Shown here one piece after another: positions 7,110 through 60,690 of a stretch of DNA of 64,000 bases (position 1 is the stretch's first letter; each line of letters opens with the position of its first letter). This DNA comes from a virus (Duplodnaviria > Caudoviricetes), in IMG/VR virus record IMGVR_UViG_2914923772_000011, positions 10,054-74,053 of that record; one strand, written 5' to 3'. Both the position numbers and the translations under genes were made by a program. The notes below the pieces were generated by a model. The model ran no database searches and was not told the DNA's origin. It was given only the letters and a program-made list of their open reading frames with translations.

Positions 7110-7138
7110 ACCCTATTAAAACGAAAGGAGAAACGAAT

Positions 7139-9010: not shown

Positions 9011-9044
9011 TTGCTTTTTATTTTCGCATGAAAGGAGAAAAGAC

Positions 9045-9365: not shown

Positions 9366-9389
9366 CAAAAGCATGAAAGGAGAAAAGAC

Positions 9390-10458: not shown

Positions 10459-10763
10459 TGAACGATATGTGTGATGCAAGCACGGCTGTTTCGATCATCC
10501 AACGATATGTTGGTGAGCATCTGTTCAGCCCATCCTTCACATGGCCAAAGTATGAATTCAGAAAAAGGTCATATCAGCAATGGGCTGCATATGAAATCTG
10601 TGATCGAATCATGGACAAGCCTTTCGACGATCCAATCACCATCATCGAAAACTTCATGTTCGAGATGGCTATGTATGCTTGTTACGGCGAGGATGAGCAG
10701 CGTAGCTTTATATTTCAGAATGCGGTCGAAACAGCTGAAGAATTAAGTCTACTATTTGTTTAA
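10458..10763 (+). CDS. Hypothetical protein, paralog of 9045-9365
   Basis: Shared SY.QWA motif; start codon uncertain. Confidence 0.65.
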   Translation: MNDMCDASTAVSIIQRYVGEHLFSPSFTWPKYEFRKRSYQQWAAYEICDRIMDKPFDDPITIIENFMFEMAMYACYGEDEQRSFIFQNAVETAEELSLLFV

Positions 10764-10779
10764 CCGAAAGGAGAAAATC

Positions 10780-11940: not shown

Positions 11941-11962
11941 TCTCTCGAAAGGAGAAAAAAAT

Positions 11963-16288: not shown

Positions 16289-16504
16289 ATGATTCATACG
16301 CAAGTGTACGGGTTTTTTCAGACATGCTTACCCGACCAGGCAAAGGAGGTAAAAGAATACTTCCCAAATGGTAAAAACAGCATTCGAATTCGCAAAACCA
16401 ACGGACAGAAATTTATATTTTCGTTGAGAGAGCCGAAGGCTTGGAAGTTTGAAACGATCGAACAATTTCTTGCCGACATGAAAGGAGAAAAGAAACATGG
16501 ATGA
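16289..16504 (+). CDS. Small hypothetical protein
   Basis: GGGAG RBS; operon position. Confidence 0.65.
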   Translation: MIHTQVYGFFQTCLPDQAKEVKEYFPNGKNSIRIRKTNGQKFIFSLREPKAWKFETIEQFLADMKGEKKHG

Positions 16505-16739: not shown

Positions 16740-19700
16740 ATGATCGACTTTTTAATGATTTCGACCCGTAGTACGAAGCGTGGTGTAATAGAAATCTATC
16801 CGAAGTTCATCATTAAGAAAAGCTCCGACCTGATGATTAGAGGCGGTGACTTCTATGCCATTTGGTTAGAAGACCGAGGTTTATGGTCTACGGATGAGCA
16901 AGATGCGCTCCAGCTTATTGACCGGGAACTTGACAAGTATGCAGAGGAAAACCGCAAAAACTTTGATTCGAGTATTAAAGTTCTGCACATGTGGGATTCC
17001 GAATCTGGAATGATCGATTCATGGCATAAATACTGTCAAAAGCAGATGCGAGACTCTTTCCACATGCTTGATGAGAAACTTATATTCTCCAATACACCGA
17101 CGAACAAAAAAGACTACGCAAGTAAGCGGCTGAACTATCCTCTTGAAGAAGGGGCCACGGATGCATGGAATAAGCTGATGTCCACAATTTACTCTAAAGA
17201 AGAGCGAACGAAAATTGAATGGGCTATTGGTTCTATTGTCTGTGGAGAGTCGAAGAAATTGCAGAAATTTATGGTTCTGTACGGTGCAGCAGGTACGGGT
17301 AAGTCTACGGTTCTGAACATTGTTCAGCAGCTCTTTGAAGGATATTATTCTGTCTTCGATGCGAAAGCACTGGGTTCGTCCAGTAATTCCTTTGCATTAG
17401 AGGCATTCAAGACGAATCCACTTGTGGCAATTCAGCATGACGGTGACTTATCTCGCATCGAGGACAACACCCGACTGAACAGTTTGGTTTCTCACGAGCT
17501 GATGACAGTAAATGAAAAGTTCAAATCGACCTACGCAAACCGCTTCAAGTGCTTCCTGTTCATGGGCACCAATAAACCGGTCAAGATTACGGACGCAAAG
17601 TCAGGTCTTATCAGACGATTGATCGATGTGTCCCCTTCCGGAAACAAATTGAGTCCCAAGGAATACAAGGCGGTGACAAAGCAAATCGAATTTGAACTCG
17701 GTGCAATTGCTTATCATTGCCAGGAAGTCTATCTGGAGAATCCGGGCAGATACGATGATTATATTCCCGTGACGATGCTCGGTGCATCTAATGATTTCTA
17801 TAACTTCATTATTGATTCTTACCATGTCTTCAAGAAAGAAGACGGGACAACTCTCAAAGCCTCATGGGAGATGTATAAAACCTATTGCGATGAGGCAAAA
17901 GTTACCTTCCCGTTCTCTCAGAGGATATTTAAGGAGGAACTGAAAAACTACTTCCGGGATTACAAGGAGAGATTCAATCTTGATGACGGAACTCGTGTGC
18001 GAAGCTATTACATTGGCTTTCGAACCGAAAAATTCGAGGATAAGGCACTTACCGAGCAAGACGAGCCTGAGCATAAACTGATCGAATTCTTAAAACAGAA
18101 ATCGGTCTTCGATAGAGAATGCGCAGATTGTCCTGCTCAGTATGCTTCGGCTAAAGAGACACCAACTTCCAAATGGGATGAAGTTTCAACTAAGCTAAGC
18201 AACTTGACGACATCAAGATTGCATTATGTGAAAGTCCCGGAGAACCACATTGTTATCGACTTTGATATTCAGGATAAGGACGGCAATAAGTCGTATGAAC
18301 TGAATCTCAAAGAAGCGAGTAAATGGCCGCCGACCTATGCTGAACTCAGCAAAAGCGGTCAGGGCATCCACCTTCATTATATTTATGCTGGTGATGTCAG
18401 CAAGCTCAGCCGAGTGTATGACGATCATATTGAAGTGAAGGTCTTCACCGGTAAAAGCTCGCTGCGCAGAAAGCTGACAAAGTGTAATGATCTGCCTATC
18501 GCAACGATCAACTCGGGTTTACCACTGAAAGGAGAAAAACAAGTGATAAATTTTGAAGGAGTGAAGAGCGAGAAAGGGCTTAGAACGCAAATCAAGCGAA
18601 ATCTGAACAAGGAGTACCATCCGGCAACAAAGCCCAGTATCGACTTCATTTACAAGATTCTTGAGGATGCTTATGCAAGCGGACTCAATTATGACGTGAC
18701 TGATATGCGCAATGCTGTCTTGGCATTTGCAGCGAGCAGCACACATCAGGCGGATTACTGTATCAAGTTAGTCAACAAGATGCAGTTTAAGTCCGCAGAC
18801 CAGTCAGCAGGAGCAAAAAATGATGATGCCAAGCTCGTGTTCTATGATGTTGAGGTATTTCCGAACCTGTTCTTGGTGAACTGGAAAATCGAGGGCGAGG
18901 GTAAGCCGGTGGTTCGTATGATTAACCCTACCCCGACTGAGATTGAAGAGCTGATGCGATTCCGTCTGGTTGGCTTCAACTGCCGTCGATACGACAACCA
19001 TATTCTCTATGCTCGGCTGATGGGGTATACGAACGAACAGCTTTATAATCTCTCGACAAAGATCATCAACGGCAGCGCAAATTGCTTCTTTGGCGAAGCC
19101 TATAATGTGTCGTATACGGATGTGTATGACTTTTCCAGTAAGAAGCAGTCCCTTAAGAAGTTCGAGATTGAACTGGGTATTCACCATCAGGAACTTGGTC
19201 TGCCTTGGGACAAGCCTGTGCCGGAGGAGCTTTGGACTAAGGTTGCTGAGTATTGCGACAACGATGTCATTGCGACAGAAGCAACCTTTAATGCTCGTAA
19301 GGCGGACTTCACGGCTCGTCAGATTCTGGCAGATGTGGCGGGGATGTCCGTCAATGATACAACGAACTCGCTGACTACCAGAATTATATTTGGTAACAAC
19401 CGCAAGCCTCAGGATCAGTTCAATTACCGTTTCATGGGTGACGAGAGTCAAATCTTCGACCCTAATGCGGATCTTCCGTTTACAATGGGGCTTGAAGACT
19501 ACGACGAGTTCACACAGTTCGATAAAAACCATCGTCCCATCTTTCCTGGCTACACATTCGAGGGCGGCAAGTCTGTCTACAGAGGTGAAGAAGTCGGTGA
19601 GGGCGGCTATGTATATTCTGAACCCGGTATGTACAGTAACATTGCTCTGTTGGATATTGCCTCTATGCATCCGAGCAGTATTGTAGCAGAAGAACTCTTC

Positions 19701-23756: not shown

Positions 23757-23769
23757 GAAAGGAGAAAAG

Positions 23770-23988
23770 ATGATAACAATTGATGTCGCGGAGTATTGCT
23801 CTGCTTGCATGGACTTCGACCCAGATGTTCAACGACCGCAAAAAGCATACGGAATGAGTGAAGAGATCGTCATATCCGACACGGTCATTCGATGCTCAAA
23901 TCGAAATCGGTGCAAAAACATTGAGCGATACCTGAGAAAGAAGGTGACGAACGATGGCGTTGGCAAGACTGACGAAGCAATGCCGTGA
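23770..23988 (+). CDS. Small Cys-containing hypothetical protein
   Basis: GAAAGGAGAAAAG RBS. Confidence 0.65.
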   Translation: MITIDVAEYCSACMDFDPDVQRPQKAYGMSEEIVISDTVIRCSNRNRCKNIERYLRKKVTNDGVGKTDEAMP

Positions 23989-24223: not shown

Positions 24224-24698
24224 ATATGCATAACAATACCAACAATTCAGACAGAATGAATACTGTCGCTTATAAAATCGGGCAGGCTATCGCGCTGGTA
24301 GCTTGTCTTTGTGTTTCTGCCATCGTCATTGCTTTAACTGTGAAGTGCATCCTGTGGATTTTGTAAGGAGTTTTTGCAGATGAATGAAGAAAAGGAAGTC
24401 TATTTTGACCAGTATTGCAAATCTTGCAAATACCACGGTCTTGAAGAGTCCAAAGACCCGTGCAATGACTGTCTCGCAGAACCCAGCAATACAAATTCCC
24501 ACAAACCGATGAACTATGAAAGCAAAAACAATTCTTGATGCCGAGAAAAAGGATGCGATTGATATTGCAACGGAACTTTGCTATAGCGAAGAAGTCAAGA
24601 GAAAAATTGCACAGGCAAAATCTGTTTACGAAATTGGTCGCATCCTTAAACAAGCACGGCTCGATCAAGAGTGATATTTCTGAAAGGAGAAAAGAAAC

Positions 24699-24998
24699 AT
24701 GAATCTTGAGGAGTTCAGAAAGGCACTTTCGTCAGATGCTACTGAAGAGAATGCACAACTGAAAAGACAGTTGTCAGACCTTCAGACTGAATACCATGAA
24801 AAGCTTTCAAAACTCGAAAATGAAAACGATTCACTTAAAGAAAGTTGTCGGGTTTTATGCAATCGATGCTTTACTCTTACGAGAGGTGTTACTTGTCTAT
24901 TTTGTGGTCTCGATTACCCCTGCCCTCATATGCCGGGGCTTGAGGAACAGGTGGCTATGGCTCATAAATTGAGAAAGGAGATCGAAAAAAATGGCTAA
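24699..24998 (+). CDS. Coiled-coil protein with Cys cluster
   Basis: GAAAGGAGAAAAGAAAC RBS; CNRC..CLFC. Confidence 0.7.
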   Translation: MNLEEFRKALSSDATEENAQLKRQLSDLQTEYHEKLSKLENENDSLKESCRVLCNRCFTLTRGVTCLFCGLDYPCPHMPGLEEQVAMAHKLRKEIEKNG

Positions 24999-25727: not shown

Positions 25728-26481
25728 AAACACCGAGGTTATGGGCTGGGAGCACGCCATTCGTGGTATGCGAAACCCTAAGAACTCTTGGGAGAAGACA
25801 GACTCATATCCTGCTGTTGACTGTGGAAAGTGCGGTAAAATCGAGAGAGAGGATATTTGCAAAAAAGAGGACCGTAATTGTACGGGTTTTGAATGCTTTG
25901 AAGTGGGCCCGAATGACCTGAAGCTTATGACGACCCTTCGCAACGCAGGCACAGACCATCGTAAGTTCATGCGGATGATTACGGTCTATCTTGACATCAC
26001 CGCCCCGCTGTATTGGTGGAAGGAGTTCGATACTTACAAGGTTGGTACGGTTGCCAATTCCTGTTCCACGATGCATAAGATTGCGGATAAGGAGTTTACG
26101 CTGGCGGATTTTAGTTGCGAGCATCTGGATCGCGAACCTTATCATCGCAACTGGATCGAGAGCGTAATCGTCGATGAAGATATCACTTCGCCACACAAGG
26201 TATGGATGACACCATTTGATGTTCTTAGATGCACGATCGAGATGCTAAACGCATATCGTGAAAACTACCTTGAAACCAAGGATAAACAGGATTGGTGGCA
26301 GATGATCCAGCTTCTCCCGAGCTCTTACAACCAGCGCCGGACAGTTATGCTAAACTACGAGGTTCTGGCGAACATCTATAAGTCCCGTCGGAACCACAAG
26401 CTCGACGAGTGGCATACGTTCTGTGACTGGATTGAGAGCCTGCCTTATTCTGAGCTTATTACTGGCGAAAAGAAAGGATGA
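25714..26481 (+). CDS. Divergent ThyX-like (flavin-dependent thymidylate synthase fold) protein
   Basis: DHRKFMRMITVYLDITAPLYWWKEFDTYK..NSCSTMH and LLPSSYNQRRTVMLNYEVLANIY..R..HKL.EW resemble ThyX, but no RHRx7S motif. Confidence 0.5.
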   Translation: MLKIENTEVMGWEHAIRGMRNPKNSWEKTDSYPAVDCGKCGKIEREDICKKEDRNCTGFECFEVGPNDLKLMTTLRNAGTDHRKFMRMITVYLDITAPLYWWKEFDTYKVGTVANSCSTMHKIADKEFTLADFSCEHLDREPYHRNWIESVIVDEDITSPHKVWMTPFDVLRCTIEMLNAYRENYLETKDKQDWWQMIQLLPSSYNQRRTVMLNYEVLANIYKSRRNHKLDEWHTFCDWIESLPYSELITGEKKG

Positions 26482-26673
26482 AAGATGATAAAATTCGTAG
26501 TCAATCAGCTTCCTTATTACGGAGAGCTGTGTCCTCTATGGACGATGTGCAGTAAAAATGCAAAGGAACATGAATGCCCGAGATACTGGGATAAATATAA
26601 AGTCTGCTTAGATGAAAACCCACATGAATGTGAGCACCTTATTGAGACAGGGAAACTCTAATAAATGTTCCTG

Positions 26674-26700
26674 CACGAAAAAAACACCCCCTATTATGAA
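26674..26700 (+). promoter_or_regulatory. Phage promoter-like motif copy 9 (variant)
   Basis: CAC gaaaaaa ACA ccccctatt ATG aa, directly followed by AAAGGAGG. Confidence 0.6.
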
Positions 26701-26715
26701 AGGAGGTAACGCACA

Positions 26716-26907
26716 ATGAATTATTTTCTGGCAGTTAATGATCGGCAACTTGGAACTTGCTTGAGAATGCTGTTTGCTGAAAAACTTCAACCTGCTGTCC
26801 AAACCGTGTTGAACGAAAAGGGCAAGATTGAGTTTCATATTAGCATTGCAGCAGATCAGGAAGTGTTCGAAGAGCTGAACGAACGCTACAAGATCATGAT
26901 TTCGTAA
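26716..26907 (+). CDS. 63-aa hypothetical protein (cassette gene)
   Basis: RBS; bounded by promoter motif and terminator. Confidence 0.75.
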   Translation: MNYFLAVNDRQLGTCLRMLFAEKLQPAVQTVLNEKGKIEFHISIAADQEVFEELNERYKIMIS

Positions 26908-26925
26908 GTTACTCGATTTCGAAGG

Positions 26926-26957
26926 TAAAGGGGCCGTAACAAGCCCTTTTACTTTTG
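26926..26957 (+). terminator. Intrinsic terminator with CGTAACAA loop
   Basis: TAAAGGGGC-CGTAACAA-GCCCTTTTA plus T-tract. Confidence 0.7.
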
Positions 26958-27112
26958 TTATATTTGTGGTAACATACTGTAAGGAGGTCATCAAATGAGA
27001 ATTATTCGAGACATATTTTGGATATTGTTGATTATTACTGTGCCGGTAGCAATCTTTGATAAATTCTTTAGACCTTATTGCATGACCGTTATCGAAAGGA
27101 TGTGTAACAAGG

Positions 27113-27310
27113 ATGAAAGTTAAATCCAGAATGTCCTGTCCGGTTCGAAGAAAAGACGGCACATGGACAACTGTTATCAAAGAATTTGAAGAAGATATTC
27201 CGGATCTCGGACGAGAAGAGCTTATCTGCAACAAATGCGGACGCCCTGATTATCCGAAATGCAAGGAAACGGTTTGTGAAGCCTGGAAATACCACAAATC
27301 AAAAAAATAA
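27113..27310 (+). CDS. Small Cys-containing hypothetical protein
   Basis: CNKC..CKETVC. Confidence 0.6.
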   Translation: MKVKSRMSCPVRRKDGTWTTVIKEFEEDIPDLGREELICNKCGRPDYPKCKETVCEAWKYHKSKK

Positions 27311-27320
27311 CATTTTATGT

Positions 27321-27354
27321 AAGAGCTGAGGTTAAACCTTGGCTCTTATTTTTT
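27321..27354 (+). terminator. Intrinsic terminator (TTAAA loop)
   Basis: AAGAGC.GAGG-TTAAA-CCTT.GCTCTT plus T-tract. Confidence 0.65.
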
Positions 27355-27510
27355 GTGTAAAGGAGAAAACAATGCTTGCCAGAGAAGCGACAAAAGCGGA
27401 TATTCAGGCTGTTTGTGACCGCCTTCGGGAAGCTAAGGAACAACGTCAGCTTGATATTCAAATAAACCAGGCTATTGCACTGGTGAATCGTAATCACAGG
27501 AGGAAAAAAT

Positions 27511-27846
27511 ATGACGCCGAACGACTATCAGCAGGCAGCTCTTCGCACTGCTCCAAAAGATTTACCGCCTGACCGGCTTCTGCTCAATGGCTTAATGGGT
27601 CTGAACGGAGAAGCCGGCGAAGCAATTGATATTTTGAAAAAGCATCTGTTTCAGGGGCACGAACTGGACACTGCACATATGGCTAAAGAGCTTGGAGATG
27701 TGGCTTGGTATCTCGCTGTAAGTGCAAACGCCATTGGGTATGACCTTGAAACCATCATGCAGATGAATGTGGATAAACTGAAAGCCAGGTATCCAGACGG
27801 TTTCGACGCTGAACACAGTCTGCATCGCGATCAGGATGATATTTAA
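27511..27846 (+). CDS. MazG-like nucleotide pyrophosphohydrolase
   Basis: GLNGEAGEAIDILKK..KELGDVAWY. Confidence 0.85.
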   Translation: MTPNDYQQAALRTAPKDLPPDRLLLNGLMGLNGEAGEAIDILKKHLFQGHELDTAHMAKELGDVAWYLAVSANAIGYDLETIMQMNVDKLKARYPDGFDAEHSLHRDQDDI

Positions 27847-27858
27847 GGAGGGTTTTCT

Positions 27859-29769
27859 ATGAATGAACAATTCGGAGAAAAGGTAAAAGCTATTTTTGAT
27901 AGCATTACCGTTCTTCAGGCAAAAGATAGCGATTTGAAACGAGATAACGCCAACATCAACGGTGACTCCCCTATGGGGGCTATGCTGCAATATGGTGCCA
28001 ATACTGCCAAGGAGTACAATTTGGAGTATTTAATTAAACCTGCAATTGCGGAACTCCACCGTGATGGTTGGATTCATATACACGATCTTGACTTCTATGC
28101 ATGGACGACGACCTGCACGCAGATTGAGCTTCGCAAGCTCTTCAAGAATGGATTCAATACCGGTCATGGTCATCTGAGAGCACCAAAAAGCATTGGCTCG
28201 TATGCTGCTCTGGCTGCTATTGCCATTCAGTCTAATCAAAATGACCAGCATGGCGGACAGAGTGTTGTGGACTTCGATTACGCAATGGCCGATGGTGTCC
28301 GTTATACCTATCAAAAGTACCTGAAAGAGGGTTACGCGATTTGCGAACGCCTCAATGACCTAAAAGACAAAGCATGGATTCTCGACTATGCTATGGAAAA
28401 GACTACTCGTGATACTTATCAGGCTATGGAGGGGTTCATTCATAATCTGAATACCATGCATTCCCGTGCCGGCGCTCAAGTTCCATTCAGCTCTATTAAC
28501 TATGGCACTGATACTTCTTGGGAAGGGCGTCTTGCTATTGAGCAGCTTCTACTTGCTACAGAAGCAGGACTCGGTCATGGCGAAACACCTATCTTCCCGA
28601 TTCAGATTTTCCGTGTCAAAGAGGGAATCAACTATAATCCCGATGACCCAAACTATGACCTGTTCAAACTGGCGATGAAGGTCAGTGCAAAGCGTCTGTT
28701 TCCTAACTTCGCTTTTATTGACGCACCTTTCAATCTCCAGTATTACAAGCCCGGTCATCCTGAAACGGAGGTTGCCTACATGGGTTGCCGTACTCGTGTA
28801 ATGGGTAATGTTTATGACCCGTCTCGTGAGATCGCTCCCGGAAGAGGTAATCTGAGTTTCACTTCTATCAATCTTCCGAGGCTTGCTATTGTGGTTGATG
28901 GCGATATTCCTCAGTTTTTCAAACTGCTTGACGGAATGCTCGACAAAACCATGCAGCAGCTTCTCGATCGATATGAGATTCAAGCGTCAAGAGTAGTTAG
29001 AAACTTTCCGTTCCTCATGGGAGAAGGCGTATGGATGGACTCTGACAAGCTTGGGCCGGATGACGAAGTTGGAGAGGTATTGAAACACGGAACCCTCTCT
29101 ATTGGTTTCTGTGGGCTTGCAGAGTGTCTTGTGGCTTTGACAGGGCATCATCATGGTGAAGATGAAGCATCCCAGGAACTCGGCTTACGCATTGTCGGTT
29201 ATATTCGGAACTATTGTGATGAGAAAAGCAAGCAGTTTGGTATGAATGTAACCTGTCTTGCTACTCCTGCTGAAAGCTTAGCCGGACGCTTACTTAGAGC
29301 TGACCGAAAAGAATTTGGTATTATTAAGGGAGTTACCGATCGTGACTACTACACCAACAGTTTTCATGTTCCGGTCTATTATCATCTCCCGGCTCTTAAG
29401 AAGATCGACATTGAAGCTCCATACCATGCTCTTACCAATGCCGGTCATATTTCCTATGTAGAACTGGACGGTGATCCGACCAAAAACCTGGCTGCTTTTG
29501 AGCGTGTTGTAAGACACATGAAAGAAGCTGGTATTGGTTACGGAAGCATCAATCATCCTGTAGACCGAGATCCTGTCTGCGGTTATAACGGAATTATCAA
29601 TGATACATGCCCCTGCTGCGGACGGAGCGAAGCCGATGGAGTTCCGTTCGAACGCATTCGTCGTATCACTGGATATTTGGTCGGAACTCTTGATAAGTGG
29701 AATGACGCTAAGCGTGCGGAGGAGCGAGATCGTGTCAAGCATGAAGTTGATTCGAATTTCGGGGATTGA
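27859..29769 (+). CDS. nrdD: Anaerobic (class III) ribonucleoside-triphosphate reductase
   Basis: HIHDLD, MGCRT, GNLSFTSINLPR, ATPAES, YYTNSFHV, CxxC pairs, RRITGYL glycyl-radical motif. Confidence 0.95.
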   Translation: MNEQFGEKVKAIFDSITVLQAKDSDLKRDNANINGDSPMGAMLQYGANTAKEYNLEYLIKPAIAELHRDGWIHIHDLDFYAWTTTCTQIELRKLFKNGFNTGHGHLRAPKSIGSYAALAAIAIQSNQNDQHGGQSVVDFDYAMADGVRYTYQKYLKEGYAICERLNDLKDKAWILDYAMEKTTRDTYQAMEGFIHNLNTMHSRAGAQVPFSSINYGTDTSWEGRLAIEQLLLATEAGLGHGETPIFPIQIFRVKEGINYNPDDPNYDLFKLAMKVSAKRLFPNFAFIDAPFNLQYYKPGHPETEVAYMGCRTRVMGNVYDPSREIAPGRGNLSFTSINLPRLAIVVDGDIPQFFKLLDGMLDKTMQQLLDRYEIQASRVVRNFPFLMGEGVWMDSDKLGPDDEVGEVLKHGTLSIGFCGLAECLVALTGHHHGEDEASQELGLRIVGYIRNYCDEKSKQFGMNVTCLATPAESLAGRLLRADRKEFGIIKGVTDRDYYTNSFHVPVYYHLPALKKIDIEAPYHALTNAGHISYVELDGDPTKNLAAFERVVRHMKEAGIGYGSINHPVDRDPVCGYNGIINDTCPCCGRSEADGVPFERIRRITGYLVGTLDKWNDAKRAEERDRVKHEVDSNFGD

Positions 29770-30232
29770 ACCGGAATCCATTGTTGACGGGGAAGGAATC
29801 CGGTATGTGATATTCGCACAGGGTTGTCCGCATCATTGCCCCGGCTGCCACAATCCTCAAACTCACCCGTTCGGTGGGGGAAAACTCGTGTCGATCGAAG
29901 ATATACTCGATGATATTTCAAAAAGAAAAAATTGGATAGACGGCATCACCATTTCCGGAGGCGAGCCGTTCTGTCAGATTTACCAGTGTGCTCTGATCGC
30001 TGAAAAAGCTCATCAAATGGGGCTCAGCGTTTGGTGCTACACTGGTTATCTTTTTGAAGACTTGTACAAGCAAGGCATCGAGCTTCTTAAACATATTGAT
30101 GTACTCGTTGACGGCCCGTTCGTACAGGCTGAAAAATCGTTGGAGCTTGATTTCAGAGGAAGCCGTAACCAGCGAGTAATTGATATCCCGGAAAGCTTGA
30201 AAGAAGGCGTAGCAATCTTGAAACAAACTTAG
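29741..30232 (+). CDS. nrdG: Anaerobic RNR activating radical SAM protein
   Basis: GCPHHCPGCHN CxxxCxxC; SGGEP; GSRNQRVID. Confidence 0.95.
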   Translation: MKLIRISGIEPESIVDGEGIRYVIFAQGCPHHCPGCHNPQTHPFGGGKLVSIEDILDDISKRKNWIDGITISGGEPFCQIYQCALIAEKAHQMGLSVWCYTGYLFEDLYKQGIELLKHIDVLVDGPFVQAEKSLELDFRGSRNQRVIDIPESLKEGVAILKQT

Positions 30233-30252
30233 AAGAAAGGAGTACCTGCATC

Positions 30253-30459
30253 ATGGCGAACACTACTAATCCTCGACGAAATGCCGAAGGATATTCTGAC
30301 CCGACCGCTTACGAAGCCCTTAAGAACATTGAGCGTGAAGAAGACGAAAGATTTCATAGGCTGCTGCATACACTGTTTTACTTGTGTGAATTGGCTGACT
30401 TCGAGATCGAAGGTCGGATTATTCTGGTTGATAAACGGAACGGACGGGTTTGGAGATAA
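30253..30459 (+). CDS. Small hypothetical protein
   Basis: GAAAGGAG RBS. Confidence 0.7.
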   Translation: MANTTNPRRNAEGYSDPTAYEALKNIEREEDERFHRLLHTLFYLCELADFEIEGRIILVDKRNGRVWR

Positions 30460-30489
30460 GAGAAATGAGTCCGTATATACTTGAAAATT

Positions 30490-30830
30490 GTGTGAATTTT
30501 AGCCCGGTTTTGTTTGGCGGATTCGGGCAAAAGCCCACTTTTGAAAAATTTTTGAGCGTGTACGGACAATTTTCTTGAAAAAAGCCCAGAAAAAGTGGGC
30601 AAAAGCCCGGTTTTGAAAACCAAAAGTGGGCAGAAAAATTCGGAGGCATTTTCTGAAAATGGCACTTTTTAGGCGTTTTTTGCCCCAAAATGGCCGATTT
30701 GCGCCGATTTGAAATTTTTTTTGTGAAAAAAAGCCCACTTTCCCACTTTTATTTCTTATTTAATTGCGATAAAAAGTTTTAATAAATATATAAATAGGGC
30801 GAGAAAAGTGGGCATTTGGCCAAAAGCCAA
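30490..30830. other. Probable phage replication origin: six (G)CCCACTTT/AAAGTGGG(C) repeats in both orientations plus an AT-rich tract
   Basis: Copies near 30533, 30591, 30622, 30733, 30742, 30804; AT-rich 30750-30796; no credible ORF. Confidence 0.55.
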
Positions 30831-30900
30831 AATACATAGCACAAGTCGATGGAAATGTCAAGACTTTTTGCCGAAAGTTCTTCCTTTTTCTTTCAAGCTG

Positions 30901-30909
30901 TGCTATACT
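30901..30909 (+). promoter_or_regulatory. Extended -10 promoter TGcTATACT
   Basis: TGn-TATACT about 6 nt upstream of the structured RNA. Confidence 0.55.
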
Positions 30910-30915
30910 ATAAGA

Positions 30916-31085
30916 GCCACACAATCTAATATGTTCAAGTCGTTTAGGGAAAACTGCTTTGGTAAAAAGTGTTTTCTCTCTTTACTCATTTCATTTGTCC
31001 CTTTGCGGCTTGATTGAGATTGTGTGGCAACAATGAGGGTTGACACTTTTTCGGTGCGTCTCTCGTTGTGGGGGCGCACTTTTTT
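30916..31085 (+). ncRNA. About 170-nt structured RNA / attenuator leader ending in an intrinsic terminator
   Basis: 12-bp stem 30916-27/31017-28, further stems 30935-42/31006-13 and 30946-50/30998-31002; terminator 31054-31085. Confidence 0.6.
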
Positions 31086-31114
31086 AATGCCCTCGGAAAG
31101 GATGGGATAATGAG

Positions 31115-31885
31115 ATGAGAAAGTTCTTGGCAGCGTGCATGGCGATTGTCATGATATTTACGATTGCAGGTTGCAGTTCAGAGGGGCATGAAGGAGAAGC
31201 TAAAACTCCATCGGGTTCCAGTATTCAAAAAGGCAAGGATTATCAAAAAGTAGTTGACGAATTTGAAAGTAGTGGTTTCACAAACATCAAACTTGAAAAA
31301 CTTGACGACCTTGTTACTGGTTGGCTTACAAAAGACGGTGAGGTTGAATCTGTTTCCGTGGATGGCGATACTGGATACTCTGCTGATGCTTGGTATCCGG
31401 CTGATGTCGAGGTTATAATCACATATCACACATTCCCGGAAAAAGAAACTTCTAAAACAGATAGCGAATCCGTTTCAACCGAAGAGCCTGCCGTTGATAT
31501 TTTGACAGTAGATAATTCTCCAGAATTGGCAGCAATACTTTCTCTTAAAGCAGATATGGATCAATCGTATGCCGATTTTGCAGAGGCTCATAAGAACCAG
31601 GTTATTGAGTTTAATGGCTGCATTACATATCTTACAAACCACGATAACTACGACACTCGATATGATTTGCTAATCAGTGCAGGAGACTATGTGGATGAAA
31701 ATACTGCAAACCCTGGTCCAACTTTTAAGTTTAAGGATGTTGGGGTATATGATTTAGGAGACGGGTTTACGCTTGCTGATTATATCAAAGTCGGCAGCAA
31801 TGTAAAAATACAGGCTAAAGTGCGGAGCTACAATTCTGATACAGGTCTCTTTGAACTTGATCCAGTAAGTGTAGAAGCTCGATAA
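31115..31885 (+). CDS. Lipoprotein moron (PASTA-like plus DUF4839-like OB domain); candidate lysogenic conversion or superinfection exclusion factor
   Basis: Signal peptide with IAGC lipobox; own upstream promoter and downstream terminator. Confidence 0.7.
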   Translation: MRKFLAACMAIVMIFTIAGCSSEGHEGEAKTPSGSSIQKGKDYQKVVDEFESSGFTNIKLEKLDDLVTGWLTKDGEVESVSVDGDTGYSADAWYPADVEVIITYHTFPEKETSKTDSESVSTEEPAVDILTVDNSPELAAILSLKADMDQSYADFAEAHKNQVIEFNGCITYLTNHDNYDTRYDLLISAGDYVDENTANPGPTFKFKDVGVYDLGDGFTLADYIKVGSNVKIQAKVRSYNSDTGLFELDPVSVEAR

Positions 31886-31902
31886 CAAACAACTTTATAT
31901 TT

Positions 31903-31939
31903 GACCGAGATGCTTAAACGGTGTCTCGGTCTTTTTTTT
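31903..31939 (+). terminator. Intrinsic terminator
   Basis: GACCGAGATGC/GTGTCTCGGTC plus T8. Confidence 0.85.
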
Positions 31940-31955
31940 ATGTCTTTTTCCGCCG

Positions 31956-31982
31956 CGCGAAAAATACATTCTCTTTTATGAA
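31956..31982 (+). promoter_or_regulatory. Phage promoter-like motif copy 10, heading the operon that contains the RNA polymerase
   Basis: CGC gaaaaat ACA ttctctttt ATG aa. Confidence 0.7.
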
Positions 31983-32065
31983 GAGAGGAGTAAAAAAGCT
32001 ATTTTTAAGAATAGACATTCTCTTTTCAGTTTTGAAAAACTACATGAAAGGAGGCTCATTTGCTA

Positions 32066-32356
32066 ATGCTCGAAAGTCAATTTCAAGCGAAGCTCATTAA
32101 GGAGCTCAAGAAACTTTTTCCAGGTTGCATCGTGATGAAAAGCGACTCTGGATATTTGCAAGGCATTCCCGATCTGCTTATTTTGTTCAATGACAAATGG
32201 GCTGCTCTGGAATGTAAACAACACGCTGGTGCAAAAAAGCAACCAAACCAAGAATATTATGTGGGTAAAATGGATGAGATGTCTTTCTCCAGATTCATTT
32301 GTCCCGAGAACAAGGAGGAAGTGCTGCATGATCTTCAACAATCATTCCAATCTTGA
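32066..32356 (+). CDS. VRR-NUC domain nuclease (resolvase-like)
   Basis: GIPDLLIL..ALECK..QPNQ PD-(D/E)xK pattern. Confidence 0.8.
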   Translation: MLESQFQAKLIKELKKLFPGCIVMKSDSGYLQGIPDLLILFNDKWAALECKQHAGAKKQPNQEYYVGKMDEMSFSRFICPENKEEVLHDLQQSFQS

Positions 32357-32885
32357 AGGGCAACACGCTTTTCTTGGTGCCAGCAAGTATCATTGGATTA
32401 ACTATGACGAAACAAAAGTAGCTGATGCTTATTCAAAGTTTTTGGCCACACAGCGAGGGACCGTTCTACATGACTTTGCATGTCAATGTATCACTTTGGG
32501 GCAAAAACTCCCCAAGTCACAGAAAACATTGAACATGTATGTCAATGACGCAATTAGTTTTCGTATGGTGCCTGAACAGATTCTGTTCTATTCAGAAAAT
32601 TGCTTTGGCACCGCCGATACGATTGTATTTCGGAATGGTACGCTTCGTATTCACGATTTGAAGACCGGTGTCGTTCCGGCGCACATGGAGCAGCTTGAAA
32701 TATACGCTGCTCTTTTTTGTTTGGAATACAAGGTGAAACCATCGGAAATCGAGATGGAACTTCGTCTGTATCAGAACAACGAAATTCTGTATCACACACC
32801 TACTGCCGAAGATATTGTTCCAATCATGGACAAGATTATTACTTTTGACAAGGTTATTAGAAAAATCAGAGAACAGGAGGGTTAA
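32328..32885 (+). CDS. Cas4-like / DUF2800-like PD-(D/E)xK exonuclease
   Basis: HAFLGAS, FGTAD, IHDLKTG, QLEIYAAL. Confidence 0.75.
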   Translation: MIFNNHSNLEGQHAFLGASKYHWINYDETKVADAYSKFLATQRGTVLHDFACQCITLGQKLPKSQKTLNMYVNDAISFRMVPEQILFYSENCFGTADTIVFRNGTLRIHDLKTGVVPAHMEQLEIYAALFCLEYKVKPSEIEMELRLYQNNEILYHTPTAEDIVPIMDKIITFDKVIRKIREQEG

Positions 32886-32888
32886 ACC

Positions 32889-35609
32889 ATGAGTCTCACG
32901 GATGATATTTTAATGCATTACGGTATGCCCAGAAGGTCTGGTCGTTATCCTTGGGGTTCGGGTGATAACCCTTATCAGCACAGCGGTGATTTTCTTTCCC
33001 GTGTAGAGGAACTGAAAAAGTCCAATTTCACCTTTACCGATAAAGATGGAAAAACTTACACAGGAGAAGTAGCCATTGCAAAATCTATGGGCTTGAGTAC
33101 AACCCAATTTCGTACCCAGATGAGCCTTGCAAAGGATGAACGCCGTTCTGCTGATGTCGCTACGGCTAAGGCTCTTCGTGCTAAGGGTTATAGTTTGAAT
33201 GAAATCGCTGATAAGATGGGCTTTGCTAACGATTCTTCGGTTCGCTCGCTTTTGAATGAGAGTTCCGAAGCTCGTATGAATCAGGCAAAGCAGACCGCTG
33301 AATTTCTGAAAAAACAGATTTCGGAAAAAGGCATGATCGATGTCGGAACCGGAGTCGAAAGAGAGCTTGGTATTTCGAAAGAGAAAATGAACCAGGCTCT
33401 TTATATTTTGGAAATGGAAGGCTATCCCATCTATGGCGGCGGTGTCCCTCAGGTAACAAACCCGGGTAAGCAAACAAACATCAAGGTTCTCTGCCCTCCA
33501 GGAACAGAGCATAAAGAGATTTATAATTTCGAGAATGTCCATTCCGTCAGAGACTATGTGTCTCATGATGACGGCGAGACATTCGACAAGTTTGTCTATC
33601 CTAAAAGTATGGATTCAAGCCGCTTGAAAATCCGTTATGCGGAAGATGGCGGTATTCAGAAAGATGGTGTCATTGAAATTCGTCGTGGTGTAGACGACTT
33701 ATCTCTCGGTGATTCCCATTATGCTCAGGTTCGCATCTTGGTCGACGGCAATAGATATCTGAAAGGAATGGCTGTTTATTCTGATGATCTTCCTGATGGT
33801 GTGGATGTAATGTTCAACACCAATAAGAAAAAGGGCACTCCGACATCGGATGTTCTGAAGAAGGTAAAGGATGACCCCGATAATCCGTTTGGTTCCCTTA
33901 TCAAAGCCGGTGGGCAGAGCTATTATATCGATGCTGATGGTAAACGACAGCTCTCCCTTATCAATAAGCGTGCTGAAGAGGGCGATTGGGGTGAATGGGC
34001 GGATAAACTCCCCTCCCAGTTTCTTTCTAAACAGAGTTTGAGTCTTGTCAATAAACAGCTGAATTTGGCGGCATCTGATAAGATGGCTGAATTTGATGAA
34101 ATCTGCTCACTGACAAATCCGACGGTCAAAAAATCATTACTGAAATCCTTTGCGGATGATTGTGACTCTGCTGCTGTGCACCTTCAGGCAGCTGCTCTTC
34201 CTCGTCAGAAATATCAGGTGATCCTACCTATCACTTCGATGAAAGACAATGAAGTGTATGCCCCGAATTACAAGAATGGTGAAACAGTAGCTCTGGTTCG
34301 TTACCCACATGGCGGAACTTTTGAGATTCCTATCCTTACAGTGAATAACAAGCAGGCAGAGGCTCGTCGAATCCTTGGCAACACACCTAAAGATGCAATC
34401 GGTATTAACAGTAAGGTTGCGGAACGGCTTTCAGGTGCTGACTTTGATGGTGATACTGTCATGGTCATCCCCTGTAACTCTGGTAAAAGCAAGGTCAAGA
34501 TTACTTCCACTCCTCCTCTGAAGGGACTTGAAGGATTTGACCCAAAATTGGAGTATGGTGGAAAACCGGCTGGCACTTTCAAGCCTATGAAGAACACACA
34601 GAAAGAGATGGGTGTCATTTCTAATCTGATTACCGATATGACTTTGAAGGGTGCCACGCAGGATGAGCTTGCAAGAGCCGTTCGCCATAGCATGGTAGTT
34701 ATCGATGCCGAAAAACACAAGCTGGACTATAAGCAAAGTGAGATCGACAATGGCATCAGCTCTTTGAAAAAGAAGTATCAGGGCACGGTTGACGAAGACG
34801 GAAGATACCACGAGGGTGCTTCGACTCTGATTTCCCGTGCTAAATCGGAGACTTCTGTCACTAAGAGGCAAGGTAGTCCGAAAATCGATGAAAAGACAGG
34901 CGAATACATATGGAAAGATGTGGATGACCCTGTTTATGTCGATAAGCGAACTGGCAAGGTCAAAGAGCGTACTCAGCCCAGCACTAAGATGGCTGAGGCA
35001 AAGGACGCCTATACCCTGGTTTCCGAAGCTGATACCCCCGTGGAGCGTGCTTATGCTAACTATGCCAACAAAATGAAAGCCCTGGGCAACCAGGCTCGTC
35101 TTGAGATCCTCTCCACTGGGAAAGTACCCTACTCCGCCACTGCAAAAGAGGCCTATCAAGCTGAGGTCGATTCTCTGAATGCTAAGCTCAATGTAGCTCT
35201 GAAGAATGCACCCAGAGAAAGGCAGGCTCAGACTATGGCTAATGCGGTAGTGGCTGCTAAAAAGCAGGACAATCCGGATATGACAAAGGGCGAGCTCAAG
35301 AAAGCAAGCCAGCAGGCGCTTACTCAGGCTCGTGCCTCTGTTGGTGCAAAGCGAGAGACCATCAAGATTACAGATCGTGAATGGGAAGCAATTCAAGCTG
35401 GCGCTATTAGCGAGAATAAGCTTACCCAAATCATCGACAATGTGGACATTGACAGTCTTAGACAGCGTGCAACACCGAGAGCGACAACAACTCTCAGCAC
35501 TGCAAAGCAGAATAAGATCGCTTCGATGAATGCTTCTGGTTACAGCACATCGGAAATTGCTGAAGCTCTTGGCATTTCTACGAGCACAGTGTCCAATTAC
35601 TTGAATTGA
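32889..35609 (+). CDS. Single-polypeptide two-barrel (multisubunit-RNAP-related) RNA polymerase with terminal sigma4-like HTH domains
   Basis: VRYPHGG..AIGINSKVAERLSGADFDGDTV parallels beta-prime RxP..NADFDGD; HTHs GYSLNEIADKMG and GYSTSEIAEALGISTSTVSNYL. Confidence 0.8.
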   Translation: MSLTDDILMHYGMPRRSGRYPWGSGDNPYQHSGDFLSRVEELKKSNFTFTDKDGKTYTGEVAIAKSMGLSTTQFRTQMSLAKDERRSADVATAKALRAKGYSLNEIADKMGFANDSSVRSLLNESSEARMNQAKQTAEFLKKQISEKGMIDVGTGVERELGISKEKMNQALYILEMEGYPIYGGGVPQVTNPGKQTNIKVLCPPGTEHKEIYNFENVHSVRDYVSHDDGETFDKFVYPKSMDSSRLKIRYAEDGGIQKDGVIEIRRGVDDLSLGDSHYAQVRILVDGNRYLKGMAVYSDDLPDGVDVMFNTNKKKGTPTSDVLKKVKDDPDNPFGSLIKAGGQSYYIDADGKRQLSLINKRAEEGDWGEWADKLPSQFLSKQSLSLVNKQLNLAASDKMAEFDEICSLTNPTVKKSLLKSFADDCDSAAVHLQAAALPRQKYQVILPITSMKDNEVYAPNYKNGETVALVRYPHGGTFEIPILTVNNKQAEARRILGNTPKDAIGINSKVAERLSGADFDGDTVMVIPCNSGKSKVKITSTPPLKGLEGFDPKLEYGGKPAGTFKPMKNTQKEMGVISNLITDMTLKGATQDELARAVRHSMVVIDAEKHKLDYKQSEIDNGISSLKKKYQGTVDEDGRYHEGASTLISRAKSETSVTKRQGSPKIDEKTGEYIWKDVDDPVYVDKRTGKVKERTQPSTKMAEAKDAYTLVSEADTPVERAYANYANKMKALGNQARLEILSTGKVPYSATAKEAYQAEVDSLNAKLNVALKNAPRERQAQTMANAVVAAKKQDNPDMTKGELKKASQQALTQARASVGAKRETIKITDREWEAIQAGAISENKLTQIIDNVDIDSLRQRATPRATTTLSTAKQNKIASMNASGYSTSEIAEALGISTSTVSNYLN

Positions 35610-35887: not shown

Positions 35888-36066
35888 ACTATAGGTTGAG
35901 GTCTAATGCTCTTTGAATAAAGTTTTTGTTTTCTTCTCTGAAAACATTTGAACTTGAAGCCAACACAAACAAATAATCACTTGATCTGCACTGCTGCCGC
36001 AGGGCTTAAAGACATGGGGAGGGGGTCTCCAAAATCGCACCCCCTACCTCATCGCGGTGGTCTTAA

Positions 36067-36094
36067 AAAAATCTCCGGAGGGATATTTTGGAAA
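36067..36094 (+). promoter_or_regulatory. Second-class conserved motif (copy B), candidate late promoter
   Basis: 22/28 identical to 6828-6855; upstream of the hairpin RNA, tRNA and packaging genes. Confidence 0.4.
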
Positions 36095-36110
36095 TGGGGT
36101 TTACCCCACG

Positions 36111-36242
36111 GGTGCAGTATTTGAACGAGCTTACAGGGTTGAGACATTTTCCATAAAGTGTGAACATCTCCTTTCATGTTTCTTTTCTCCTTTCGGTGAT
36201 TGGTGGAAATTCAACTCTGTAAGTTCTTTCAAATACTGCACC
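36111..36242 (+). ncRNA. Hairpin RNA with 32-bp stem and tandem anti-Shine-Dalgarno loop
   Basis: Arms 36111-36142 and 36211-36242 pair at 29/32 Watson-Crick plus two G-U on the + strand; loop contains CTCCTTTCATGTTTCTTTTCTCCTTTCGGT. Confidence 0.7.
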
Positions 36243-36293
36243 TATTCTCACCTAAAAGAGCATCGGTTCAGATAAAAAGTGCAGTACAAGTAT

Positions 36294-36381
36294 GCGGATA
36301 TGGCGGAACTGGCAGACGCAATAGACTCAGAATTTATTGGAGGTTATCTCCGTGCAGGTTCAACTCCTGTTATCCGCACCA
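36294..36381 (+). tRNA. tRNA-Leu(CAG) with encoded CCA
   Basis: GCGGATA/TATCCGC acceptor; ATAGA-CTCAGAA-TTTAT anticodon arm; long variable arm; GCAGG-TTCAACT-CCTGT T arm. Confidence 0.9.
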
Positions 36382-36408: not shown

Positions 36409-36750
36409 ATGCCAAAAGGTAAAGCTGCAAGCTCTTCCGACTCAAACAGCCCATTGAGACCACCGACATCTCTCGAAGCGCAAGAGAACTTAATGATTTC
36501 TTTGGCGGTTCAATGTGCTGAAAAGCAGCTCAGAGACGGAACTGCTTCTTCTCAGGTCATAACACATTATTTGAAGCTCGGTTCCAGTAAGGAACGAATT
36601 GAAAAGGAGATTCTGGAGAAGCAGAAAGAGCTTATCGAAGCGAAGACCAAGAATCTAAATTCCAACAGTGAAGCCAAGGAGTTGTACAACAAGGCTCTCG
36701 AAGCGTTTAGGAGATATTCCGGTGCAGGCGGTGAAGACGATGAGTATTAA
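36409..36750 (+). CDS. Probable terminase small subunit
   Basis: First late gene, before HNH and TerL; helical ENLMISLAVQCAEKQLRDGTASSQVITHYLK pattern. Confidence 0.55.
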   Translation: MPKGKAASSSDSNSPLRPPTSLEAQENLMISLAVQCAEKQLRDGTASSQVITHYLKLGSSKERIEKEILEKQKELIEAKTKNLNSNSEAKELYNKALEAFRRYSGAGGEDDEY

Positions 36751-37159
36751 AACCTATTCGGAGTTAATTACATTGCCGACATTTGAAGAACGATTTCTCT
36801 ACTTAAAGCTTGATGGTTCCGTTGGAAAAGAAACTTTCGGTTTTAAGCGATGGTTGAACCAAGAGTTTTATCATTCGGATCAATGGCTGCAATTCCGAGA
36901 TGAAATTATCATTCGGGATGAAGGTTGTGATCTTGGTATGCCGGGTTATGAAATCTTTGGTTCCGTATTGATCCATCATCTGAATCCGATTACTTATGAA
37001 GATATCTTAAATCAGAGCCCCTGCGTTTTCGATCCGGAGAATGCAGTTTGCACCAAGTTGAATACACACAATGCGATTCACTATGGTGATGAAAGCTTAC
37101 TGGTTCTTCCACCTGTTCAACGCACACAAAATGATACATGCCCCTGGCGAAAACAATGA
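36740..37159 (+). CDS. HNH endonuclease (packaging associated)
   Basis: IIRDEGCDLG..IHHLNP..THNAIH. Confidence 0.8.
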   Translation: MSIKTYSELITLPTFEERFLYLKLDGSVGKETFGFKRWLNQEFYHSDQWLQFRDEIIIRDEGCDLGMPGYEIFGSVLIHHLNPITYEDILNQSPCVFDPENAVCTKLNTHNAIHYGDESLLVLPPVQRTQNDTCPWRKQ

Positions 37160-37174
37160 AAGGAGAAAATTCCA

Positions 37175-45053: not shown

Positions 45054-45067
45054 TCTGTAAAAATTAT

Positions 45068-45107
45068 GGAGCCGTATTCAGGTAAGCTGGCGGCTCCTAC
45101 TTTTTTT
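45068..45107 (+). terminator. Intrinsic terminator after the major tail gene
   Basis: GGAGCCG..CGGCTCC plus T-tract. Confidence 0.7.
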
Positions 45108-45130
45108 AATTTGAAAGGAGAAAAATTTCA

Positions 45131-59178: not shown

Positions 59179-59211
59179 GCAGCGAGGAGAGGACGGGAGA
59201 ACCTTAGGTTC
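59164..59211 (+). promoter_or_regulatory. Hairpins downstream of VR (candidate IMH-associated cruciform)
   Basis: GCTGCT-GCGTA-AGCAGC and GAACC-TTA-GGTTC. Confidence 0.55.
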
Positions 59212-59261
59212 GCCGGGTAAACGAAAACAATTAAATATTAGGGGTATACACTGCGCCCAGT

Positions 59262-59372
59262 GCGTATGTCGGCGGCAACTGGAACAATGACCTTATGGTC
59301 GGTCCTTTCTACGCTAATCTGAACAATACGGCGTCCAATTCGAACTCGAACAATGGCGCGGCTCTATCTTAT
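59262..59372 (+). repeat. DGR template repeat (TR)
   Basis: AAC/AAT-rich codons; intergenic, upstream of the RT; flanks 59243-54 and 59394-405 pair over 12 bp. Confidence 0.95.
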
Positions 59373-59529
59373 CCATAAGAAGCTCTCCTTAATGCAGTGT
59401 ATGCCGCCATTTCAAAATGGCAAGAGATATCCGCATCTCTTCCTCACCACTTGGTGAAAATTAACTCGGTGCAAGCATCTGTGAGTAGCTGAGAATAAGT
59501 CGAAAGCGGATGAGAGGATAAGAGAGAAC

Positions 59530-60690
59530 ATGAAATCCTATAACCACTTGTACGAAAAAACAATATCCGAAACGAACCGACGGTACGCTCTGTCTCAAGC
59601 AAAGCACAGCAAGAGATTCCGTAAAATCATGAAACACCGGCACATGTCTGACGATGCCGCAGTTGAACAATCCTTAGACTGGATAGTCAACTACGAAAAC
59701 GCCGAGCATGTGCCGGTTTACATTTATGATGGGATTACTCGCAAGGAGCGCACTATTATTGTCCCTACGATGGAAGAGCTGCTTGTTCAGCATTGCATCG
59801 TAAATGCCATGAAGCCGATGTTCTGCAAGGGAATGTATGAACACAGCTATGCCAGTCTTCCGGGCAGAGGTGCCCATAAAGGAAAGCAGGTAATTGAGAA
59901 GTGGATCAGGACTGACCCGAAGAATTGTAAGTATGTCCTCAAAATGGATATTCGCCATTTCTTTGATTCCATCCCACACGATCGTTTGAAAGCCAAGTTG
60001 AAGAAGACCATTCATGACGAGAAGATGTTGGAGCTATTATTCCGCATTATCGATGTTACAGAGGTTGGTATTCCACTTGGCTTTTATACTTCTCAATGGC
60101 TTTCCAACTGGTATTTGCAGGGTTTAGATCATTTCATCAAGGAGCAGCTCTGTGCCGTGCACTATATGCGCTACATGGACGATATGGTCATTTTCGGAAG
60201 CAACAAGAGGGTTTTGCACCGCATGAGACAAGCAATTTCCGATTATTTGGAAATGGAGCTTGGTTTAGAACTTAAAGCGAATTGGCAAGTCTTTCGCTTT
60301 TCCTATGGCAACAACCAGGGGCGTGACCTGGACTTCATGGGCTTTCGTTTTTATCGTAATCGAACGATTCTTCGAAAATCCATTATGTACAAGGCCACGA
60401 GAAAAGCTCGCAAAATCTCCAAAAAGGAGAAAGCAACCATACTCGATGCTCGGCAAATGTTGTCTTATCTTGGGTGGATCGACTGCACCGATACTTATTT
60501 GATGTATCGGAAGTGGATAAAACCATGTGTTAGCTTCCAGCAATTGAAGCGAAAAGTTTCACGATATGACAAATACGATGAGAAGCGGGTATATCAAAAA
60601 CTCGTCAGTCTTTACACTGCGAAAGGAGGAAAGTCGCATGGAGTTAAATTACAAATATGCCGAGAGCACAGTCCAACCGACTGCACTTGA
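59530..60690 (+). CDS. DGR reverse transcriptase
   Basis: KMDIRHFFDSI, GIPLGFYTSQWLSN, RYMDD, DFMGF; adjacent TR. Confidence 0.95.
   Translation: MKSYNHLYEKTISETNRRYALSQAKHSKRFRKIMKHRHMSDDAAVEQSLDWIVNYENAEHVPVYIYDGITRKERTIIVPTMEELLVQHCIVNAMKPMFCKGMYEHSYASLPGRGAHKGKQVIEKWIRTDPKNCKYVLKMDIRHFFDSIPHDRLKAKLKKTIHDEKMLELLFRIIDVTEVGIPLGFYTSQWLSNWYLQGLDHFIKEQLCAVHYMRYMDDMVIFGSNKRVLHRMRQAISDYLEMELGLELKANWQVFRFSYGNNQGRDLDFMGFRFYRNRTILRKSIMYKATRKARKISKKEKATILDARQMLSYLGWIDCTDTYLMYRKWIKPCVSFQQLKRKVSRYDKYDEKRVYQKLVSLYTAKGGKSHGVKLQICREHSPTDCT

Follow-up and report, generated by a model that had tools for sequence, protein, structure and literature searches.

The window analysed here, a stretch of 64,000 nucleotides that forms part of a 74-kb provirus record, carries a long-stem hairpin whose loop is complementary to a set of the phage's own translation starts. 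The hairpin is almost certainly a real, conserved RNA and, to judge from sequence, its loop very probably pairs with starts of the phage that encodes it. These features point to an uncatalogued RNA switch that would turn down a subset of the phage's early genes, and its main role is probably that of a multi-target antisense RNA damping early translation in lytic growth. The coordinates of the hairpin, its surroundings and its candidate targets are collected in Table 1.

The hairpin is the top-scoring inverted repeat when the whole window is scanned. Its arms pair as the first-pass annotation had described, forming a 32-bp stem around a 68-nt loop, and the three non-Watson-Crick positions are present (C36126-T36227, G36129-T36224 and G36137-T36216). 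The predicted folding energy is -61 kcal/mol on the + strand (z -9.6) and -47.6 kcal/mol on the minus strand, and the covariance-model score is 128.8 bits on + and 55.8 bits on -. The core CTCCTTTC occurs twice in the loop, at 36168 and 36187, again as described, and these are its only + strand copies in the window; its complement has 31 copies, 27 of them to the left of the hairpin. The predicted unpaired fraction is 0.94 for the first core and 0.50 for the second, and in 21 of 21 RNAs the core is more exposed than the remaining loop when the best core of each RNA is taken. The earlier preference for a + strand RNA is borne out by comparative data, in which G-U pairs outnumber A-C pairs on the + strand by 63 to 7, or by 150 to 26 with symmetric scoring. 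Since G-U so greatly exceeds A-C on this strand, the element appears to be an RNA, read from the + strand, rather than a DNA element. The end of the 3' arm (36234-36290 region) may also pair further downstream, at about 36277-36290, where the first bases of the stem are repeated; this possible alternative fold is present in some close relatives too.

The 42-aa minus-strand ORF that had been named as a competing product does exist, with its RBS and ATG, but it is not conserved: the minus-strand start is absent in 13 of 22 relatives, and the others have unrelated ORFs of 3-55 aa. A conserved small hydrophobic ORF overlapping the RNA, as in type I toxin-antitoxin systems, is thus not found among the relatives. 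Intrinsic terminators have a short GC stem, a loop of 3-8 nt and a U tract, and the loop here is far longer; a terminator scan at the hairpin found none. A promoter scan around the hairpin gave matches at chance level.

Relatives were sampled as 50 non-redundant loci collected by way of the neighbouring gene. The stem score reaches the threshold of at least 15 in 42 of the 50 (null maximum 12.5), and 39 of these 42 have a C/U motif in the loop. Of the loci without the stem, several come from broken contigs or have no cos motif. A covariance analysis in related prophages, proposed with the original claim, gives two-sided changes at 28 of the 32 stem pairs (27 aligned sequences); 93.7% of the cells of this alignment are paired, as against 31-44% in slid controls. 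A loop that drifts while the stem is kept had been raised as grounds for doubt, but the anti-SD core is nearly invariant in the alignment, alongside the conserved stem. The model built from the alignment finds one hairpin copy per prophage, and its search of 33 host genomes (best 97 candidates each) gave nothing beyond the prophage copy, with one weak exception. Model R1 detects FP_oengus (E 0.003) and misses 1706, Gordon, Arcadia and the G017/G025/G030/G034 clade, all of which owe their assignment to position, architecture and own-target complementarity rather than to a sequence score. Among close copies, one of 72 (L050:48-185) has the hairpin interior inverted, which is compatible with an assembly flip, the alternative being a rare real inversion. 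As in the sRNA class, the structure is conserved on one strand and non-coding, and an exposed seed complementary to distant start regions is combined with covariation.

The element is absent from the regions examined of Streptomyces BI, Gordonia DJ and a few gut relatives, and no such loop is found in the parts examined of Streptomyces phages Bing and Secretariat. In Bing (record 25821-34099) a 9-nt leader motif stands at the head of the early units, and several of these units close with its complement. This arrangement suggests 5'-3' pairing inside each transcript, which could be a cis-acting substitute for the hairpin RNA. Secretariat shares the leader motif, with a single complement at 37208.

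The window phage carries a phrog_4291 RNA polymerase (RNAP), a primase-polymerase, a capsid-protease fusion and the gene order around cos that characterize the supercluster of Lactococcus 1706, FP_oengus, Arthrobacter AM-AU, Streptomyces BI and Gordonia DJ phages, as set out in the available text of 10.1101/842583. A nearly identical prophage is present in Clostridium leptum DSM 753. About 45 bp separate the hairpin from the cos end of this 1706/Oengus-like prophage. Curtobacterium phage AddiRose matches the segment 36016-36055 with its right genome end, and the left genome ends of cultured relatives open with the motif at 36064-36085; the hairpin is therefore the first element behind cos. The RNAP operon lies on one side of it and the late genes on the other, with no terminator found to separate them. 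In a blastn search of the hairpin region against cultured phages, only the tRNA and the cos end gave matches. The hairpin had been placed just before a tRNA-Leu and the terminase, which holds for the tRNA; the next gene belongs to phrog_4259, a family annotated without a function, and is in the small-terminase position, and the large-terminase position is at 38253. Since most relatives have no tRNA there, the tRNA-Leu is not part of the element.

Some other features of the window may be recorded here. The anticodon of the tRNA-Leu is CAG by ARAGORN, with a slightly irregular anticodon arm, and relatives carry other tRNAs or none in this slot. A second tRNA-like match in the early region, at 8939-9007 (Rfam 39.6 bits), was missed by ARAGORN. 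A promoter-like motif, CGC-~15 nt-TTATG, stands before early genes and the RNAP operon (6450, 7083, 8353, 8911, 10218, 11550 and 31956), with none before the hairpin. A diversity-generating retroelement at 59047-60982 follows the tail gene 57331 and comprises a repeat pair (59047-59155 / 59262-59370), an RT-18 RNA (59445-59526), a reverse transcriptase (59530-60690) and a 114-aa accessory-like gene.

Table 1. Coordinates of the hairpin, its genomic neighbours and the start sites complementary to its loop
Feature	Position	Strand	Basis or remark
Long-stem hairpin RNA, candidate antisense sRNA core	36111..36242	+	Fold, inverted-repeat scan, covariation, model score
Stem 5' arm, 32-bp stem	36111..36142	+	Arm pairing, covariation
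Stem 3' arm, 32-bp stem	36211..36242	+	Arm pairing, covariation
Loop antisense module: two anti-SD cores (36168, 36187) and anti-spacer/anti-AUG linker	36166..36197	+	
42-aa ORF	36049..36177	-	Judged a by-product of the antisense sequence
Cos region	36016..36085	.	Cohesive end near 36053-36063, conserved left-end motif
tRNA-Leu gene	36294..36381	+	51 nt downstream of hairpin
First late gene, phrog_4259	36409..36750	+	Small-terminase position
Phage RNA polymerase, phrog_4291	32889..35609	+	Upstream operon, may read through cos
Candidate target, 99-aa early gene	24682..24703	+	22 nt across SD, spacer, AUG
Candidate target, 77-aa gene (phrog_16856) preceding primase-polymerase	16480..16499	+	20 nt across SD, spacer, AUG
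Candidate target, DUF6353 gene at 10780	10763..10777	+	15 nt; family matched most often
Candidate target, DUF6353 gene at 9390	9372..9388	+	14 nt, and 12 nt with other core
Candidate target, 106-aa early gene at 9045	9027..9043	+	14 nt
Candidate target, 72-aa early gene	23757..23770	+	14 nt
Candidate target, 62-aa early gene	11946..11958	+	13 nt
Candidate target, 130-aa early gene	7122..7133	+	12 nt; family matched in 10/12 genomes
Candidate target, in-frame internal GTG start (18543) within primase-polymerase	18527..18545	+	12 nt
Candidate target, leader of nuclease-exonuclease-RNAP operon	32042..32053	+	12 nt
Late-region match, gene after major tail gene	45113..45124	+	12 nt; recurrent, 14/19 genomes
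Late-region match	37158..37169	+	12 nt; 2/13 relatives, not recurrent

Matches are given as exact complementarity between the loop and start regions, with their length in nt. The three long complements described in the first-pass annotation, of 22, 20 and 15 nt, are present, as are the shorter ones of 13 nt at 11946 and 16476 and of 12 nt at 9027, 9372 and 32042. Complements of 14 nt at 9030, 9375 and 23757 had been overlooked. Foreign start regions that share the core reach at most 17 nt (0 of 307 attain 20 nt), and none of 300 flank shuffles reaches the observed top-three sum, so that the 20- and 22-nt matches are not due to chance. The site in the leader of the RNAP operon is real in that it serves the 96-aa nuclease gene that opens the exonuclease-RNAP operon, but the RNAP start itself is unmatched. 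The late genes at 37158 and 45113 do carry the shorter complementarity that had been noted as a caveat. The primase-polymerase (1383 aa) has a strong conserved RBS at its in-frame GTG; relatives keep this internal start, whose product of about 790 aa suggests a separately translated polymerase domain. The DUF6353 family, phrog_2152, which is the one most often matched by the loop, has three paralogues, at 9390, 10780 and 13301.

The loop core has the sequence of the host 16S tail, and the test of loop against target therefore rests on the flanks; many short matches are expected from strong RBSs alone. It had been supposed that a shared RBS evolved as the target of the RNA. Loop and targets do coevolve, and the loop fits the phage's own starts, but the core shared by these starts is merely the complement of the 16S tail and so need not have evolved as a target. 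With gene starts of the gut prophages predicted by a simple purpose-made caller, the loop shows a cognate excess of 1.5-2.1 nt against own early starts in 21 representative prophages (p <=1e-4). In phylogenetically independent pairs, the cognate combination outscores the swapped one in 8 of 9 by energy (p 0.02) and in 7 of 8 untied pairs by length, several of the pair differences being small. The window and its close relative G004 have reciprocal private matches (34.4 cognate, 26.2 swapped). When all + strand segments of a genome are ranked by antisense matches to early starts, the loop comes first in 25 of 28 gut prophage genomes and also in 1706, oengus, Gordon and Arcadia; in the present window it matches 20 early starts and the next best segment 3. 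At the internal primase-polymerase site the spacer co-varies with the loop in G007, G009/G015 and G012, a family that is conditional on the caller having chosen the strong site.

The hairpin is also present, unannotated, in Lactococcus 1706, FP_oengus and 55 Arthrobacter phage records. The 1706 loop differs in sequence, and its matches to early starts of 1706 itself are 20, 16 and 14 nt long. At a length of at least 12 nt, the 1706 loop matches 8 of its own early starts and 0 in the window, and the window loop matches 10 of its own and 0 in 1706. The 1706 loop has, in addition, a 12-nt module outside the SD, partly bordering the stem, that covers the AUG of orf23-25, the first early genes. In Arthrobacter phages Gordon and Arcadia the matches are 13-15 nt long and include each phage's first early gene. 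The published starts of cultured phages are matched in 24 of 221 early and 2 of 93 late cases (p 0.006).

Among all starts examined, 29% of early, 13% of late and 1.6% of host starts are matched over at least 11 nt, the host matches never exceeding 12 nt; at 12 nt or more the counts are 83 of 955 early and 13 of 401 late. The extended site is found at 18% of pooled early starts and 7% of late ones, the early value being higher in 17 of 21 genomes, and at 0-3% of starts in sampled host DNA compared with 13-31% of early phage starts. G030, G029 and G034 have no early bias. When only leaders of at least 40 nt are considered, the contrast is gone (19% early, 16% late); with the recurrent late target set aside post hoc, the figures are 18.4% and 5.7%. 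The early-over-late selectivity is modest, only about two- to threefold, and partly reflects which genes have free leaders. Exact match length is more informative than whole-loop duplex energy, which separates early from late weakly, and not at all in cultured phages. The starts of the RNAP (0 of 20 genomes), the major tail protein (0 of 21) and the tape measure protein (0 of 15) are unmatched, and exonuclease, helicase, HNH and connector starts are never matched either. The DUF6353 genes, the internal polymerase start, several small early genes and the late gene that follows the major tail gene are matched recurrently. Since matches favour free leaders, the RNA appears to be aimed at tagged, independently initiated cistrons, mostly early, and not at the whole early region. 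The early-to-late switch originally proposed is partly supported, in that an exposed anti-SD loop coevolves with mainly early starts.

Two features lie near the recurrent late target. A terminator-like hairpin at 45058-45105, after the major tail gene and just before this target, keeps its loop sequence across many relatives. The other feature, an early-type promoter motif at 45043, is not kept in relatives and looks like chance.

In the mechanism proposed, the first 200 bases behind cos would give rise to one + strand RNA per phage genome, produced by transcription running on from the RNAP operon over the ligated ends or, alternatively, as the late transcript's leader. It would be made once the genome ends are joined, because the hairpin of linear 1706 begins fewer than 50 bases from the genome end and no early-type promoter motif precedes the hairpin of the window. 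The long stem would give stability or an RNase III site and would keep the pyrimidine-rich loop open. The loop would bind 10-20 of the phage's own cistrons in trans, chiefly early ones whose leaders are free, at the SD, the spacer and in some cases the start codon. Pairing over the SD and AUG would block 30S loading, as in known sRNAs. The accumulating RNA would lower early translation, sparing the RNA polymerase and most structural genes. Since the RNAP start escapes, the circuit would read as a delayed negative feedback on early translation. A lytic role is favoured because the element occurs in 1706 and in integrase-less Arthrobacter phages; because no repressor is recognised near the integrase, a further role in lysogeny may exist.

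The main job of the RNA might instead lie in the lysogen, where a constitutive RNA would silence the prophage and superinfecting kin, and loop-target drift would make immunity types. No recognisable repressor is found among the ten integrase-adjacent genes scanned, close relatives have reciprocal private matches, as in G004, and the c4 RNA of P1/P7 is a precedent (PMC12197685). However, 1706 and Arthrobacter AU/AM phages without an annotated integrase retain both the hairpin and its targets, the hairpin is far from the integrase, at the early/late junction, and the shared core would cause cross-silencing between types. A main role in the lysogen is rather unlikely, and the pure lysogeny silencer offered in the first-pass annotation is disfavoured by the presence of the element in phages that are called virulent or have no integrase. 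A general translation rheostat, or mimic of the 16S tail, that titrates strong free-leader RBSs of phage or host, or binds a protein, without any early/late logic, is improbable: the flanks leave the 16S sequence and track own starts, including the non-SD module of 1706, and host starts seldom match. Even so, the identity of the core with the host 16S tail, the long-leader late genes that are matched about as often as early ones and the one late gene that is a conserved target all speak for it.

Since the hairpin is always upstream of the first late gene, or gene in the small-terminase position, it could also be a cis element, the 5' leader of the late transcript, in which the loop sequesters the RBS of that gene in a pseudoknot-like manner and so times the terminase. 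The loops of G009 and G015 can pair over about 18 bp with this start, and there is a weak cognate energy signal (p 0.025), but match length shows no cognate signal (p 0.26). In the window the start at 36409 is a poor target (5 nt, rank 59 of 71), a tRNA intervenes, and the 20-22-nt matches 12-20 kb away would be unexplained. As the main explanation this is distinctly improbable; some clades may use such cis pairing as a second function, and in G009/G015 it is plausible. It is highly improbable that the sequence acts as DNA (a packaging signal, cruciform or invertible segment) or as the RBS of a minus-strand peptide gene. It does adjoin cos, one copy is inverted, and the minus strand of the window has a well-formed RBS and ATG, but the G-U bias of the + strand is an RNA signature, the Arcadia hairpin is about 900 bp from cos, the single inversion fits an assembly flip, and most relatives lack the minus-strand start. 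The preferred reading remains the antisense RNA directed at early starts.

Several known RNAs resemble the hairpin in part. The P4 CI RNA is a phage-encoded, trans-acting RNA whose loop sequences pair near an RBS of the phage's own mRNA. RsaE/RoxS, FsrA and RNAIII of Gram-positive bacteria, and the cuckoo RNAs, have C/U-rich loops in which unpaired anti-SD motifs serve several mRNAs, as those of the hairpin would. These C/U-loop RNAs are host-encoded, short hairpins that pair imperfectly with host mRNAs, whereas the loop described here has up to 20-23 nt of perfect complementarity with the phage's own starts and gives no Rfam hit. The c4 antisense RNA of P1/P7 controls one antirepressor operon for immunity (PMC12197685). 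Like c4, the hairpin is phage-encoded and would act in trans through loop sequences that pair near the phage's own RBSs, with a specificity that varies among relatives. Unlike c4, it has one 30-bp stem and 10-20 candidate targets and occurs in phages without an integrase; in place of an antirepressor operon directly downstream, its best targets are 12-27 kb away and are DUF6353 genes or genes annotated without a function. The T4 RegB endoribonuclease inactivates many early mRNAs at the SD, easing the move to later stages; it is a protein that cuts GGAG and requires ribosomal protein S1 (PMC9409239). The outcome proposed for the hairpin RNA is similar, early mRNAs being inactivated at the SD, but the recognition element would be an RNA loop, and no nuclease is implied.

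As first supposed, the element is not recognised as described: no Rfam family and no description in the literature searched was found. The Rfam 15 covariance models, at the gathering threshold, find only tRNA and RT-18 in the window, a local search of the hairpin has a best hit of 19.6 bits against a cut-off of 230, and the C4 models do not match it. The available text of the 1706/BI supercluster, Arthrobacter and Microbacterium papers makes no mention of the hairpin. The catalogue of Fremin et al. 2023, which covers candidate viral structured RNAs across IMG/VR, has unassigned motifs ahead of packaging genes among its entries; its text, in the portion available, does not mention SD pairing, and the hairpin may be an anonymous entry there (PMC10690425). 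By the tests run, the hairpin RNA is a member of none of these systems; it would be RegB-like in outcome and c4- or C/U-loop-like in chemistry.

To our knowledge, early-protein shut-off in lytic phages of Gram-positive hosts is little understood, the T4 nuclease being the best-studied case. If the role proposed here is correct, phages would have, besides that nuclease, a second means of early shut-off, an antisense RNA directed at many targets of their own. There is about as much to be said for as against a wider reading of the sequences, in which a cross-phylum phage lineage would run early shut-off, and perhaps immunity, by one programmable antisense RNA; the private RBS extension would then be an address tag, and tag and loop would be rewritten together in each lineage, replacing a RegB-like protein or a repressor. 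The hairpin lineage is very common in the gut (428 IMG/VR matches to the gene adjoining the hairpin), and since the element sits in cultured phages, the question is testable at once. The complementary sites would also provide a first regulon map for many genes annotated without a function.
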